This document shows, one piece after another, positions 43,148 to 48,209 of a DNA stretch of 64,000 nucleotides (its first letter is position 1; every line of letters begins with the position of its first letter). Under the pieces are notes generated by a model. The model saw only the letters and a list, made by a program, of their open reading frames with translations. It was not told the origin of the DNA and searched no databases. Both the position numbers and the translations under genes were made by a program. The stretch is from Candidatus Calditenuaceae archaeon HR02 (lineage in GTDB: Archaea; Thermoproteota; Nitrososphaeria_A; Caldarchaeales; Calditenuaceae), in contig BEHE01000001.1 in the NCBI GenBank assembly GCA_002898395.1, forward strand, positions 91,182 through 155,181, in the 5' to 3' direction.

Positions 43148-44185
43148 TTGGTGTCTATTGTTTATTCTAACAAAATCCTCTTGAGTATACGATTCATTCT
43201 GATATTCTCTCTGATCGCTGCGGGGCTTACAGCTGGTGTTTTGTCACAAAGCGTCGTTACTAGGACTCGGACCTCTACCACGCTAGAAACTATTGGAAGC
43301 ACGATAATTACAACCACTGTAGTAATTGAAGGGGGTGAAAAAACCATCACCATGGTTGTCCCTGGCTATGTGGTAGTTGAGGTACGTTTAGAATCGGGTA
43401 GGACGTGTGTAGTTATCTTCAGAGCGTTGAGAGAGATTCCCGAGCAGACTGTGACGATTACTGGAGGGACGTTTAAGTTCCCCGGAACGACAATGTCGAC
43501 CGTGATTAGGGAGCAGACGATTATCTTCTCCACGGCCTACACTGACGCCGGCTGGACAACCACCTATACTGGCCTCGGCCCCGGCTACGTCACTACCATG
43601 AGAATTGGTGGCATGGAGTATACCTTCAGTTATCCGGTCGGGGGCGAGTTCAGGGAAAGGTGCGGAGAGAACATAGTTTCAGTCTTGAATACGGTTATCT
43701 TTGAGACCGGTCCAGCCACCTTCTATCTGGCGTTTCCAGGCTACACCTTCACTATTCCGGCAGCAACCTACACTATTCCAGGCATTACACTAGAGATCGA
43801 GCCATTTACTACAACCTATACGAGTGTCATTAAGGGAGTAACTGAGACACAGACAACAACATTCCGCGGCTCAACCATGATAGAGACTATCACTCTACAG
43901 GCCAGCACATACGTGACCACGGTCGTCAAAGAAGGAAGTACTGTAACTCGGCTTGTCTACTTGGTCGAGACTGTAACACTTGGAGAGGAGACCACTACGC
44001 CAGCTACCACTACGACACCAACAACGACTGTAACAACGCAGCCAGCCACCACGACACCGCAAGTTACAAGAACGGAGACTCAGCCACAGCCGGCACAATT
44101 CGATGTAGTCATAGTTGCAATCGTCCTGGCTGTAGTCGCTGTTGTAGCCGGAGCCGTGGTCTATATTTTAAAGAAAAAGCCGTAG
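43148..44185 (+). CDS. Thr/Val-rich secreted protein with C-terminal membrane anchor (putative surface protein)
   Basis: 345 aa. N-terminal hydrophobic segment, a Thr-rich body, a TTTPATTTTPTTTVTTQPATTTPQ stalk and a terminal TM helix plus KKKP. Confidence 0.5.
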   Translation: MVSIVYSNKILLSIRFILIFSLIAAGLTAGVLSQSVVTRTRTSTTLETIGSTIITTTVVIEGGEKTITMVVPGYVVVEVRLESGRTCVVIFRALREIPEQTVTITGGTFKFPGTTMSTVIREQTIIFSTAYTDAGWTTTYTGLGPGYVTTMRIGGMEYTFSYPVGGEFRERCGENIVSVLNTVIFETGPATFYLAFPGYTFTIPAATYTIPGITLEIEPFTTTYTSVIKGVTETQTTTFRGSTMIETITLQASTYVTTVVKEGSTVTRLVYLVETVTLGEETTTPATTTTPTTTVTTQPATTTPQVTRTETQPQPAQFDVVIVAIVLAVVAVVAGAVVYILKKKP

Positions 44186-44212: not shown

Positions 44213-45436
44213 TTATCTGTCCCACTCCACAGGCCAGAAGTTGTTGGACCAGTAGATGACCGGTATATCGGCTATTCTTTTCCCACGCCCAGTATAGGGT
44301 ATGACTATCAGGTTTCTGAAGGATGGTGCAAGTATTCTTACCCTGTATGGTTTATCTGAGCCGTCTGACCTGACGTAGTAGGCCATCTCGCCGTGTGCGG
44401 CCTCAGCCCTAGCAAAGGCCTCGCCAGCAGGGACCCTAATGTTTATTGGATGCTGCTTGAGCTTAAAGGGGCCGTCGGGAAGCCCCTCGATAAGCTGTCT
44501 AATAATCTTGAGGCTCTCCCTCATCTCCCTAAAGGCTACGACAGCCCTAGCATAACCATCTCCCTCAGTAAGCACTGGGACCTCGAACTTTACGTCGCTG
44601 TAGGCATCGTAGGGCTCATCCACTCTTACATCCCTCCTTAAGCCGGACGCCCTCAATGTGACGCCTACGGCGCCAAGTGCTGCAACCTCATCTGGCGTTA
44701 ACCTTCCAACCCCTCGCGTCCTGCTTATGAATATCGCGTTGTCGAGAATCAGGTCCCAGTAGTAGTCCAGCCTACAATCTATGAAGTCGGCTACGTGTAA
44801 AGCATATTTACGGAAGTCGTCTGTGAGTTCAGACTCGCTTGGCCTCTTACCTGTCGCCTCAGAATACCACGTCCTGAAGTGCTGCACAAGCCTGGGCGGG
44901 ACCCTAGCAAGAACATCATTCCTAACACCGCCAGGCACAAAGTATGAGTGCGTGATTCTCTGACCCCCAATGAATTGGACTAAGTCGACGATGAATTCGC
45001 GGTCGCCGAAGCACCAGAGGAAGGGTGTTGGGAGTCCCAAGAAGACCCCGTAGAGGGCAAAGTAATAGAAGTGGCTACCAATCCTGTTGAGCTCGGCCAT
45101 GAGGGCGCGGAGGTATTTTGCGCGGGGTGGCGGCTCGACTCCCATCAGCTTCTCAACAGCCAGGCAGTACGGGTATAGCATTCCAGCGGAGTCGAGGATA
45201 GCGGGCCTTTCGAGGTGCGGAACATTAGTAATCCAAGTCTTTGACTCGCACATCTTTTCCTCCCCCCGATGGACGAATCCCGGGTCAGGCTCTGCCTCAA
45301 GCACTGTATCCCCTAAGACTCTAACGATTAGTCTGAAATGGCCCGTTCCTGGGTGCTGTGGGCCGTAGGAGAAGACAAGCCCCTCACCAGTATCGTAGAT
45401 GTATATCTCCCTGCTCTCCTGACCCTCCTCTTGCAT
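44213..45436 (-). CDS. nuoD: NADH-quinone oxidoreductase subunit D (49-kDa subunit)
   Basis: 407 aa with YGPQHPGTGHFRLIV.., GFVHRGEEKMCE, IGGQRITHSYFVPGGV. Confidence 0.85.
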   Translation of the reverse strand: MQEEGQESREIYIYDTGEGLVFSYGPQHPGTGHFRLIVRVLGDTVLEAEPDPGFVHRGEEKMCESKTWITNVPHLERPAILDSAGMLYPYCLAVEKLMGVEPPPRAKYLRALMAELNRIGSHFYYFALYGVFLGLPTPFLWCFGDREFIVDLVQFIGGQRITHSYFVPGGVRNDVLARVPPRLVQHFRTWYSEATGKRPSESELTDDFRKYALHVADFIDCRLDYYWDLILDNAIFISRTRGVGRLTPDEVAALGAVGVTLRASGLRRDVRVDEPYDAYSDVKFEVPVLTEGDGYARAVVAFREMRESLKIIRQLIEGLPDGPFKLKQHPINIRVPAGEAFARAEAAHGEMAYYVRSDGSDKPYRVRILAPSFRNLIVIPYTGRGKRIADIPVIYWSNNFWPVEWDR

Positions 45437-45590
45437 CTAAATCTCCTCCACATAGCCTCTATTATAAGCTATTGAACCTTCCAGCAGAACGAGGCCTCCT
45501 CAGATAGAAGGTCTGAAGGACCTGGATTCATGGATAGTGTCTTTGGACGTTCAAAGGTTGTTGATTGTGTTACTAGCATTAACCATTTTT

Positions 45591-45782
45591 CTATCGCTTC
45601 TCCTGCTTCATCAAGAGAAAGACAAGAACAAGTACGACAAGTATTAGGAGGAGACCCAGGCGGAATAATACGCCCAGCACAGCCCTAATCCCTGCAAACA
45701 CACCCCAAAGAAAGGCGCCTCCCACACCGATGATGGTGACCAGAAAAGCTAGTAAAATGATTATGAGTCTCGGGCTCAACAC
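45591..45782 (-). CDS. small two-TM membrane protein between nuoC and nuoD (hypothetical)
   Basis: I trimmed track ORF 45591..45971 to the GTG at 45780-45782, because its upstream part overlaps nuoC. The product is VLSPRLIIILLAFLVTIIGVGGAFLWGVFAGIRAVLGVLFRLGLLLILVVLVLVFLLMKQEKR. Confidence 0.35.
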   Translation of the reverse strand: MLSPRLIIILLAFLVTIIGVGGAFLWGVFAGIRAVLGVLFRLGLLLILVVLVLVFLLMKQEKR

Positions 45783-45837
45783 CCTCCTGCCCCACTCCCG
45801 TGGGTCCTGATGCCTGTTGAGAGATTTATGAGTTGTG

Positions 45838-46338
45838 CTATTCTCTCCCTGGAGGCCGATAGTCCTTTCTAAGTGGTGGGATATCTGACCACCATTCTGG
45901 AAGCAGTAGTCGCTTGAGCTTTGGATGACCTTCGAATACCACCCCGAGCATCTCGTAGGTCTCACGCTCATGGTACTCTGCGCTGGGCCAAATTTTAACC
46001 AGCGACGGCGAAACTGGCCTGTCTCGGGGAAGCTTAGTGGAAAGGTTCACGACATAGGGGGCGAGCTCGCCATCAAGGTAGGCCCCCGCGTGGTAGATCA
46101 GCTCTATCGCGTTTTCACTCTGTTTAAGCGCTATCAAGTCGATGCCAGTTACGCCCTTCACATGGTCGAAGCCCATCTCCTTCAAGATAGCCGCTGCCTC
46201 GACCAGGGCCCCAGAAGCCACATTAACCTTGATGATCTTCTTATCAACCGTAACCCCCTGTAGCTTATCACCTAATACCATCTTGAGCCTCTCTAGGGCC
46301 GCAGCGAGTTTGGGGTTGGCACCGTGAAGCTCGCTCAT
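45838..46338 (-). CDS. nuoC: NADH-quinone oxidoreductase subunit C (30-kDa subunit)
   Basis: [18 protein letters not shown]...[35 protein letters not shown]. The ATG at 46336-46338 overlaps the nuoB stop (ATGA). The longer track ORF start lies inside nuoB. Confidence 0.8.
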
Positions 46339-48209
46339 ACCAAATCCTCGTTTAATATCTTGTCGCGAAGCAGCACAAAACCTTGTATGAGTGTCTGGGG
46401 GTTGGGTGGGCATCCTGGTACATAGACGTCTACGGGGACTATGTCGTCGACTCCCTGGAGGACATTGTAAGAATCTTTCGCATAGAGTCCACCAGAGATG
46501 GCGCAATTATGGACTAACACTCCATTTGCAAAAAAGTTGTGGTATTTGTCTACCTCTATGTCAAAGACATTATCGTGGCCCACATATTCTACGTTGGAGA
46601 CCTTAATAAGTGATATGTCTTTATGATTTGTCCGAAGTAATGACTTATTGTTCCTTCTACGTCTAACTATGTTACCCCTCACTCTCTCTATATATTCCAG
46701 TCTGGTTAACGGAAGTTCCGCTACAACGGAATGAGGCAGTCTAATACAATACTCTTCAGAGGCTACTTTTCTCCCATCTATCGTGTTTACTTTAAATTTT
46801 CTATAAATGCCTGATACGTGGATTCCTCTGAAGTGGCATAGCTCCACTAAGTCTCTGAGAAGCTGCCTATTAACTGAATATATGTATGCGGAGCCATCAA
46901 GTTCGACATAACCGTCAGACTCTATTAAACCAGCTATAAAATGCATAACGTGATTTAATGGAGATAAATAAATCCAATTTGGAACCCTCTTATTATATAC
47001 ACCATTATATGGTTGCAAAGTTGTTAACATACCGCTAACAGCAGTAGATTCTATTGTAGCCTGTCGCCAGCTTGAGGGTTTTAACCCAGATATCTCTTCT
47101 ATTGTATTTTCGAGTTCATTTCTTATTGGGTCGTGTGGTAATATCGAAAACTCTATGCGGTTTTTGTTTTTCAATCCGTCTCCCATATAGACTCCTACAA
47201 TCCACGCCAGCTTTTCATCCACATACTCAGGTAGCCTGACTTTGTTCTTAATCCATCCATCATGTTTATAAGATATTTTAACAGGAATTCCATCAAGCTG
47301 CAGGTTAAAGACTGGTAATGTATCGCCGATTTTAACCTCTCTTAGAGTTTTCCAAGTAATTTCATACCCAAACCTAGCTGGTGGGTTCTTTAACCAATAT
47401 GACAGAGTCTTCCTAGAAATTCCGAGAGTATTAGCGACCTCCTCCTTCTTCATACCGCATTTAAGCATCTTCTTAGCATAGCTATACATTCGCCACTTAT
47501 GTGTTTCTGTTTTCTCATAAACAGCTATTGGGTGATCTTCAGTAGCTTCCAGCTCATAAGAGCCAGCGGTTATTCTATATATTCTCCTGATTCCGTTATT
47601 CTTTTTAGCCTTAACCTTAGCAGTAACCACTCTTCGGCTATATTCATCATATGCAAACACAATATCCCCGACATGAATATCCGATATTCTTTTGAGACCT
47701 GAAGGTGTATAGACGAGTGAGTGGGCAGGAAGACAGGCACCCATGGCCACCACATACTTCGGCTCAGGCATCTGGTCATATATTATCCGGACCCGCTGGG
47801 CCATCTTAGTGGTAACCGTCCCCTCCACGATGAGGAGGTCGGACTGCCTCAGTGAGCCGACCGCGTTCAGTATTCCAAACCTCTCGGGGTCGTATCTGGA
47901 GCCGACCGTTCCGGCGAACTCGACTGAGCAGCAGGCCGTGGTGAGGTGGACTGGAAAGAGGGATGAGAGCCTACCCCAGTTCACAATATACTTGATGAGC
48001 GACCTCCTCCTAAACCACTGAATCACGAAGTTTCCCCCACCTTCCTCGTTAAGCTTTCCTACCCCATACCTTCTAACCGATTCGGGAACCTTTTGAGGGG
48101 GGACCACCTCCTGGGAAATAGATTCCACAACAACTCGAGAGGAGCCTAGTGTGAGGTTGAAGAGCCCTGTTTTCCGCCGACCGTGCGCGTATGCGCAGAG
48201 AGGGGCCAA
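46335..48209 (-). CDS. nuoB: NADH-quinone oxidoreductase subunit B (PSST/20-kDa) precursor containing an intein
   Basis: Extein blocks are [33 protein letters not shown] | CAISGGLY, and [13 protein letters not shown] 410-aa insertion separates the GA from the CA. The N-terminal extent of the extein is uncertain. Confidence 0.85.
46506..47735 (-). mobile_element. NuoB intein with LAGLIDADG homing-endonuclease domain (410 aa)
   Basis: Begins [13 protein letters not shown] (block A, Cys1 codon 47733-47735). Block B is TEDHPI. LAGLIDADG blocks are [12 protein letters not shown] and [13 protein letters not shown]. Ends [21 protein letters not shown] (Asn codon 46506-46508), followed by the +1 Cys. 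Confidence 0.85.

Follow-up and report, generated by a model that had tools for sequence, protein, structure and literature searches.

The nuoB locus and its interrupted reading frame

We analysed a stretch of 64,000 nucleotides (nt) from Candidatus Calditenuaceae archaeon HR02 (assembly GCA_002898395.1, contig BEHE01000001.1, positions 91,182 to 155,181 of the forward strand), in the following called the window, with a focus on an intein that interrupts nuoB, the gene of a respiratory complex I subunit. All coordinates given are window positions. The open reading frame (ORF) of the nuoB precursor lies on the minus strand at 46335..48209 and comprises 624 amino acids (aa) plus stop, with the TTG start codon also called in NCBI and in relatives; an identical 624-aa NuoB precursor is present in NCBI nr. 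Other start codons for the precursor were considered and rejected, as the databases hold only the 624-aa TTG call. A first-pass annotation, made from the sequence letters only, had read this ORF as NuoB interrupted by 410 aa, and this proved exact: the frame is open over all 624 aa, and the insert occupies 46506..47735 (minus strand), corresponding to aa 159-568 of the precursor (CLPAHS...VLVHN). It is flanked by an N-extein at 47736..48209 (minus strand; aa 1-158), which carries a lineage-specific N-terminal extension of 71 aa as well as the tandem cysteines C93-C94, and by a 56-aa C-extein at 46338..46505 (minus strand), the first residue of which is the +1 Cys.

Removal of the insert in silico yields a NuoB of 214 aa, encoded by a gene of 645 nt, with the junction at Ala158-Cys159. 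Pfam Oxidored_q6 is matched in two stretches by the precursor (8e-25) and in one by the spliced product (9e-30; score 103 with a cut-off of 27). Both NCBIfam NF005012 (201 bits with a cut-off of 116) and TIGR01957 (196 bits with a cut-off of 143) cover a single stretch of the spliced product from residue 72 to 212, the NuoB match of which reaches 7e-60. In alignments with NdhK, NDUFS7, and Nqo6 of solved complex I/NDH-1 structures, with E-values to 7e-49, the junction (...AMGAC.I.GG...) is ungapped. From these matches, which exceed chance by far, the host protein is identified as NuoB/Nqo6/NDUFS7, the 20-kDa iron-sulphur (Fe-S) subunit of complex I. The expected regeneration of AMGA-CAISGG by splicing thus agrees with the colinearity of the 214-aa product with NuoB models and structures.

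For relatives, the called NuoB proteins agree in start and length with the window NuoB minus its intein, and the length of 214 aa is constant across Caldarchaeales relatives. Residues 1-71 (47997..48209, minus strand), beginning at the TTG start, form the extension ahead of the conserved core and in part resemble thaumarchaeal N-termini (…KSGTFQVLVGK…).

Anatomy of the intein

Judged by its motifs and by a structural model, the insert, here called NuoB-b, is a canonical class-1 intein consisting of a Hint splicing domain and a double-motif LAGLIDADG homing endonuclease. The hallmarks named in the first-pass annotation are all found at the expected places on the minus strand. Cys1, the block A nucleophile (47733..47735), is invariant in an alignment of 15 homologous inteins (alignment A1), as are T65 and H68 of the block B motif T-E-D-H (47532..47543; residues in intein numbering). 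LAGLIDADG motif 1 (47175..47210) contributes the catalytic Asp D186 and motif 2 (46905..46943) the catalytic Asp D274. The region of blocks F and G (46506..46568) holds D392, the penultimate H409, and the terminal N410, directly followed by the +1 Cys. C1, T65, H68, D186, D274, D392, H409, and N410 are all kept in alignment A1.

Hidden Markov models (HMMs) of the Hint and LAGLIDADG domains agree with this assignment, as Pfam Intein_splicing (1e-13; 51.8 with a cut-off of 35.8), LAGLIDADG_3 (24.9 with a cut-off of 22.5), and Hom_end (24.3 with a cut-off of 21.1) are all matched above their cut-offs by the precursor. In addition, TIGR01443 (intein_Cterm) matches the region of blocks F and G (1e-7; 31.6 bits with a cut-off of 15.6). 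A sequence search of the PDB with the intein gave weak partial matches only. An AlphaFold2 model of the intein built on alignment A1 reached a predicted local distance difference test (pLDDT) value of 89.1 and a predicted template modelling (pTM) score of 0.84. The top PDB matches of this model in Foldseek were the Tli/Pho VMA inteins, PI-SceI, PI-TkoII, and PI-PfuI (E-values 1e-23 to 1e-14), so that the Hint fold as modelled matches that of solved inteins.

Within the Hint domain, following block B, a three-helix module resembling a helix-turn-helix (HTH) is located at 47388..47501 (minus strand; intein aa 79-116), which represents a putative extra DNA-binding region. Its helices in the model span residues 79-92, 97-104, and 108-116, and the module is conserved across the NuoB-b family (W81, G94, E99, W114, P119). 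Pfam HTH models match it weakly, without reaching their cut-offs (HTH_3 0.003; HTH_23 0.01). Its position is analogous to that of accessory DNA-binding regions in other large inteins, and it is possibly an auxiliary DNA-recognition region. An intein profile run against the six-frame ORFs of the 64-kb window found no other inteins.

The +1 cysteine and cluster N2

In the spliced NuoB, the motifs TACCSVE, GACAISGG, and PGCPP provide the cysteines C93, C94, C159, and C190, while position 5 holds a fifth Cys that is not conserved. In the window, the tandem ligand cysteines C93-C94 are encoded at 47928..47933 within the N-extein, the +1 Cys as ligand 3 in GAC-AISGG at 46503..46505, and ligand 4 in GCPP at 46410..46412 within the C-extein (all minus strand). 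The ligands of cluster N2 are four cysteines of NDUFS7 including a strained tandem pair, which in Yarrowia are C85, C86, C150, and C180 (PMC8042128). In the HMMER alignments, residues 72-211 of the query correspond to residues 64-201 of the NUKM chain, and residues 72-209 to residues 24-159 of Thermus Nqo6; from these coordinates and the Yarrowia ligands, it follows that C93, C94, C159, and C190 are the N2 ligands, with C159 corresponding to C150 of Yarrowia NUKM. In Thermus Nqo6, the N2 ligands are presumably numbered C45, C46, C111, and C140.

The proposal that the +1 Cys is a ligand of N2 could thereby be made more specific, since C159 maps to the third ligand in Yarrowia; by alignment, the splice nucleophile corresponds to ligand 3 among the four of N2. 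It would be a sound expectation from this sequence arrangement that Fe-S assembly in NuoB needs prior splicing.

Empty and decayed alleles in relatives

A search with the spliced product retrieved uninterrupted 214-aa NuoB proteins with 94%, 92%, and 89% identity at 100% coverage. The loci with empty alleles (L028-L031) are fully syntenic with the window and share the gene order GH36, zinc-dependent alcohol dehydrogenase (Zn-ADH), nuoB, nuoC, a 62-aa ORF, nuoD, a hypothetical gene, inositol-1-phosphate synthase, GT87, and S15. After removal of the insert, the window DNA has the 645 nt of the empty alleles and aligns with them at 86.5-88% identity with 0 gaps. BLASTN comparison of the window with these loci gave a collinear match of more than 11 kb with about 85% identity; its sole break is at window positions 47734/46505, which correspond to adjacent bases in the empty alleles. 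The intein of 1,230 bp is the only large indel between the window and its closest relatives. The insertion point in nuoB is GCC|TGC, and candidate intein-less target sites were recovered from L028, L030, and L031; the empty site of L028 or L030 reads AAGTATGTGATGGCCATGGGCGCC|TGCGCAATCTCTGGCGGACTCTAC.

The insert also differs from its surroundings in guanine-cytosine (GC) content, with 0.387 compared to values of 0.565 for the N-extein and 0.497 for the C-extein. Measured against flanks of 0.544, the window intein has the lowest GC content and the largest deficit in the NuoB-b family. The more distant locus L032 (70-77% nucleotide identity; 89.6% identity of NuoD) holds a 353-aa intein homologue at the same codon of nuoB. 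The endonuclease region of this homologue is degenerate, its Hint parts are 49-59% identical to those of the window intein, and its GC content is nearly ameliorated (0.484 vs 0.511). The distribution is thus sporadic, with empty sites in the closest relatives, a decayed copy in L032, and mini forms elsewhere. This is the pattern of the homing cycle: the window copy is intact and compositionally foreign, the nearest relatives are empty, and the copy of a cousin is decaying.

Compared to the empty alleles, the exteins show a ratio of nonsynonymous to synonymous substitution rates (dN/dS) of 0.06-0.08 overall, with 0.015 for the core; two empty alleles compared with each other gave 0.086. As the exteins thus equal intact alleles, the interrupted nuoB appears to be kept functional, which implies splicing. 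The possibility that nuoB is a pseudogene was rejected on dN/dS and on the intact motifs.

Distribution in databases and literature

In a protein search space of 5.8 billion, the best 61 database matches to the precursor include 53 with an insert at the NuoB-b codon (at least 53 protein clusters, all from Nitrososphaerota). The insert has its full length of 406-411 aa in 46 of them and is decayed or reduced to a mini form of 209-353 aa in five, the other two being fragments. A profile search of the GTDB species representatives found 12 species-level genomes carrying a NuoB-b intein with 43-49% identity to that of the window, all of them uncultured metagenome-assembled genomes (MAGs) of Nitrososphaerota/Thaumarchaeota. 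In an exhaustive search of 50%-identity representatives, the NuoB-b family comes down to about one representative, P0207 (9e-192); the next matches are inteins in SufB and ClpP with about 30-33% identity.

Natural mini-inteins at this site that are devoid of the endonuclease were seen in P0050 (209 aa), P0051 (225 aa), P0053 (248 aa), and L012 (203 aa), and decayed forms in P0048 (287 aa) and P0001 (353 aa). These mini and decayed forms represent several independent deletions of the endonuclease domain.

Some carriers have received names from automatic annotation that refer to the insert, such as 'NuoB-like.../intein/homing endonuclease' at JGI and 'LAGLIDADG family homing endonuclease' at NCBI, the latter for the intein-bearing NuoB precursors P0013 (HVB95166.1) and P0084 (MGD0146695.1). 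Due to the NCBI naming, nuoB can seem absent and complex I incomplete when metabolism is reconstructed from Nitrososphaerota MAGs.

Full-text searches found no paper on inteins in NuoB, complex I, NADH dehydrogenase, or NADH-quinone or ubiquinone oxidoreductase, or on thaumarchaeal NuoB inteins. The main text of an intein census (PMC4760082) mentions neither NADH nor respiration, and a listing in the supplementary tables of that source is possible. The host and the insertion site are therefore new to the searched literature, while sequence databases already contain many copies of the allele. Accordingly, the view of NuoB as an unusual intein host, put forward in the first-pass annotation, stands with respect to publications; given that 53 out of 61 top matches and 12 genomes have an intein at this codon, the case is less singular than was implied there.

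A second intein site in NuoB

A further LAGLIDADG intein, NuoB-a, of about 378 aa is located between the tandem N2-ligand cysteines in the motif CCxxE (ETAC|C...VVHN|CSVE). It is carried by P0008, P0014, P0016, P0020, P0023, P0024, P0026, P0027, P0030, P0031, P0034, P0039, P0051, P0054, and P0055 and by the loci L003, L006, L011, and L012. NuoB-a is absent from the window and was found only in Nitrososphaerales, either alone (P0054, P0055) or together with an intein at site b, so that, with alleles lacking both inteins or carrying NuoB-b alone, all four possible states of occupancy were seen. Depending on the allele, the role of +1 splice nucleophile thus falls to one or the other of two N2 ligands out of four, or to both. 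The idea that sites a and b hold duplicates of one intein was rejected, as their identity is 26% and confined to the endonuclease core.

Neighbouring genes and window context

Downstream of nuoB, two genes for further complex I core subunits follow on the minus strand. The first, nuoC (45838..46338; 166 aa; Complex1_30kDa, 4e-32), has an ATG that overlaps the nuoB stop codon by 4 nt. The second, nuoD (44213..45436; 407 aa; Complex1_49kDa), encodes a protein 95.8% identical to the NuoD of L028; the window NuoD falls into a cluster at 90% identity or more, the members of which bear the names Nitrososphaerota archaeon or Candidatus Calditenuaceae. The Calditenuaceae are a family within the order Caldarchaeales (formerly 'Aigarchaeota'). 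No nuoA and no nuoH-N were found in the 64-kb window, where nuoB-nuoC-nuoD (44213..48209) stand alone. The flanking genes serve sugar metabolism (GH36, Zn-ADH, GH63-like, GH42, GH127) or encode solute-binding proteins, malate synthase, and an Fe-S protein resembling LutB.

Between nuoC and nuoD, the ORF of about 62 aa (about 45591..45779, minus strand) is conserved in all relatives (L028:4941-5129, L030:7202-7390, L032:8211-8408). Its product is very hydrophobic, has no Pfam match, and, judged by its sequence, probably contains two transmembrane helices; it may be an unrecognised small membrane protein associated with complex I. An ORF of 345 aa rich in Thr and Val (43148..44185, plus strand) features a tract of poly-Thr/Pro and, at the C-terminus, a hydrophobic anchor, also has no Pfam match, and may encode a secreted or surface glycoprotein. 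At its position, the relatives hold a hypothetical gene of 312-356 aa.

Splicing, homing, and alternative explanations

According to the mechanism we propose, nuoB would be translated as the 624-aa precursor, of which the Hint domain would then splice itself. An N-S acyl shift at Cys1 of the intein would be followed by trans-thioesterification, by which the N-extein is moved onto the +1 Cys. Cyclisation of Asn410, assisted by His409, would free the intein, and an S-N shift would form the peptide bond between Ala158 and Cys159. The product would be the 214-aa NuoB with an intact G-A-C-x-x-x-G-G motif, and only then would C93, C94, C159, and C190 be jointly placed for the [4Fe-4S] cluster N2, which would be inserted afterwards. 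For the freed intein of 47 kDa, we predict cleavage of intein-less nuoB at ...GCC|TGC..., upon which recombinational repair would copy the intein into the cut allele (homing); such homing into intein-less alleles would lead to the patchy distribution. We consider it highly probable that the insert is an intein which undergoes ordinary class-1 splicing to give mature NuoB. That its endonuclease is still active appears somewhat more probable than its loss.

Several points weigh against this reading. The best identity of any other intein to the window copy in the 5.8 billion proteins is 53%, and the 90% cluster of the window precursor otherwise holds short fragments only; there is thus no near-identical copy elsewhere that would document recent homing directly. 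Viral contigs, examined as a possible vector, contained only unrelated inteins (22-28% identity) and gave no sign of such a vector. Actual splicing, endonuclease activity, and the insertion of the cluster after splicing are what we infer here. The endonuclease could already be inactive despite its intact motifs, and a second, intein-free copy of nuoB may exist outside the 64-kb window.

The first alternative is that the intein splices while its endonuclease is no longer active, so that the element would be a vertically inherited passenger at the stage of the homing cycle after fixation. The missing close copy among the proteins searched is in line with this, and decay is frequent in the family: a catalytic Asp is lost in P0040, P0046, and P0047, and the whole endonuclease domain in P0001, P0048, P0050, P0051, P0053, and L012. 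The window copy, however, has kept its two LAGLIDADG motifs with the two Asp residues in an unbroken ORF of 410 aa, and the AlphaFold2 model is confident across the endonuclease core. Furthermore, the very low GC content compared to the host suggests that the intein has not resided there for long, and the sites of the nearest relatives are empty. We therefore regard an inactive passenger as rather unlikely.

In a second alternative, the host would have turned the intein into a post-translational switch, by which redox-, metal-, or Fe-S-gated splicing would tune the maturation of complex I. Cys1 and the +1 Cys adjoin other N2-ligand cysteines, and two inteins of unrelated origin, NuoB-a and NuoB-b, both use an N2-ligand Cys as +1 nucleophile. 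Conditional splicing that responds to redox state or metals is also described for other inteins, such as the mycobacterial DnaB intein as a sensor of oxidative stress (PMC6195587) and SufB (PMC8891592). On the other hand, the patchy presence, absence, and decay in close relatives are those of a selfish element and not of a retained regulator, and conserved cysteines may simply be good homing targets that meet the need for a +1 nucleophile. Such a switch hence seems unlikely. The related idea that oxidation or premature binding of metal or Fe-S at the splice thiols stalls NuoB splicing, which would set up a redox or iron checkpoint on the terminal cluster in these archaea, is equally unlikely. 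Finally, an insert that does not splice, with nuoB inactivated and its function lost or provided by another copy, would fit with the coverage of 64 kb of the genome, in which nuoC and nuoD are the only nuo genes besides nuoB, but is highly improbable in view of the complete set of catalytic splicing residues, the frame open for 624 codons, the extein dN/dS of 0.06-0.08 (core 0.015) as in intact alleles, and the intact nuoC and nuoD, the former translationally coupled to nuoB.

With ordinary splicing as the preferred reading, NuoB-b adds to the known intein hosts a core respiratory Fe-S subunit, in which the splice nucleophile would double as a cluster ligand, and offers a clean natural system for studying interference between cofactor insertion and protein splicing. 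The homing cycle can be studied in compact form on the set of empty, full, decayed, and mini alleles, for which target sequences are available and in which two N2 cysteines out of four each mark an independent insertion site. Protein engineers may make use of the thermophile-derived intein and of the natural mini versions. The general understanding of inteins is unchanged by these results, as the mechanism is conventional.

Comparison with known intein systems

The architecture of NuoB-b, a Hint domain into which a two-motif LAGLIDADG endonuclease is inserted, is the same as in the bifunctional inteins of archaea and yeast, namely PI-SceI (Sce VMA1), PI-PfuI (Pfu RIR1-1), PI-TkoII (Tko Pol-2), and the Tli/Pho VMA inteins (PDB entries 1vde, 1dq3, 2cw7, and 7qss/7qsu/7qst). 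Shared with these are Cys1, TxxH, the terminal HN, and the +1 Cys, with template modelling (TM) scores in Foldseek of up to 0.70, whereas sequence identity is low at 13-18%. Their hosts are an ATPase, a polymerase, or a ribonucleotide reductase (RNR) instead of a respiratory Fe-S subunit, and unlike them, NuoB-b has the conserved three-helix HTH-like module after block B.

By profile search, the nearest relatives outside NuoB are SufB inteins, as in Mtu SufB and in archaeal SufB with two inteins, the host of which is Fe-S-related as well; SufB is a scaffold of Fe-S cluster assembly. The relatives recovered (P0208, 1.5e-99; P0213; P0225) all have SUFBD_core exteins and include proteins with two inteins. 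They differ from NuoB-b in host and site, are about 30-33% identical, and match mainly in the endonuclease and the C-terminal Hint part. NuoB-a shares with NuoB-b the host protein, the LAGLIDADG type, and the use of an N2-ligand Cys as +1 residue, but is of unrelated origin.

Further counterparts are the NuoB-b alleles of soil and peat Nitrososphaerales (P0002-P0047, L001-L012), which are inserted at the same codon (…MGA|C…HN|C[AS]I[ST]GG), are homologous over their full length of 406-411 aa, and contain the same HTH-like module. Compared to these, with which it shares 43-53% intein identity, the window intein resides in a host of another order, the Caldarchaeales, from thermophilic settings.

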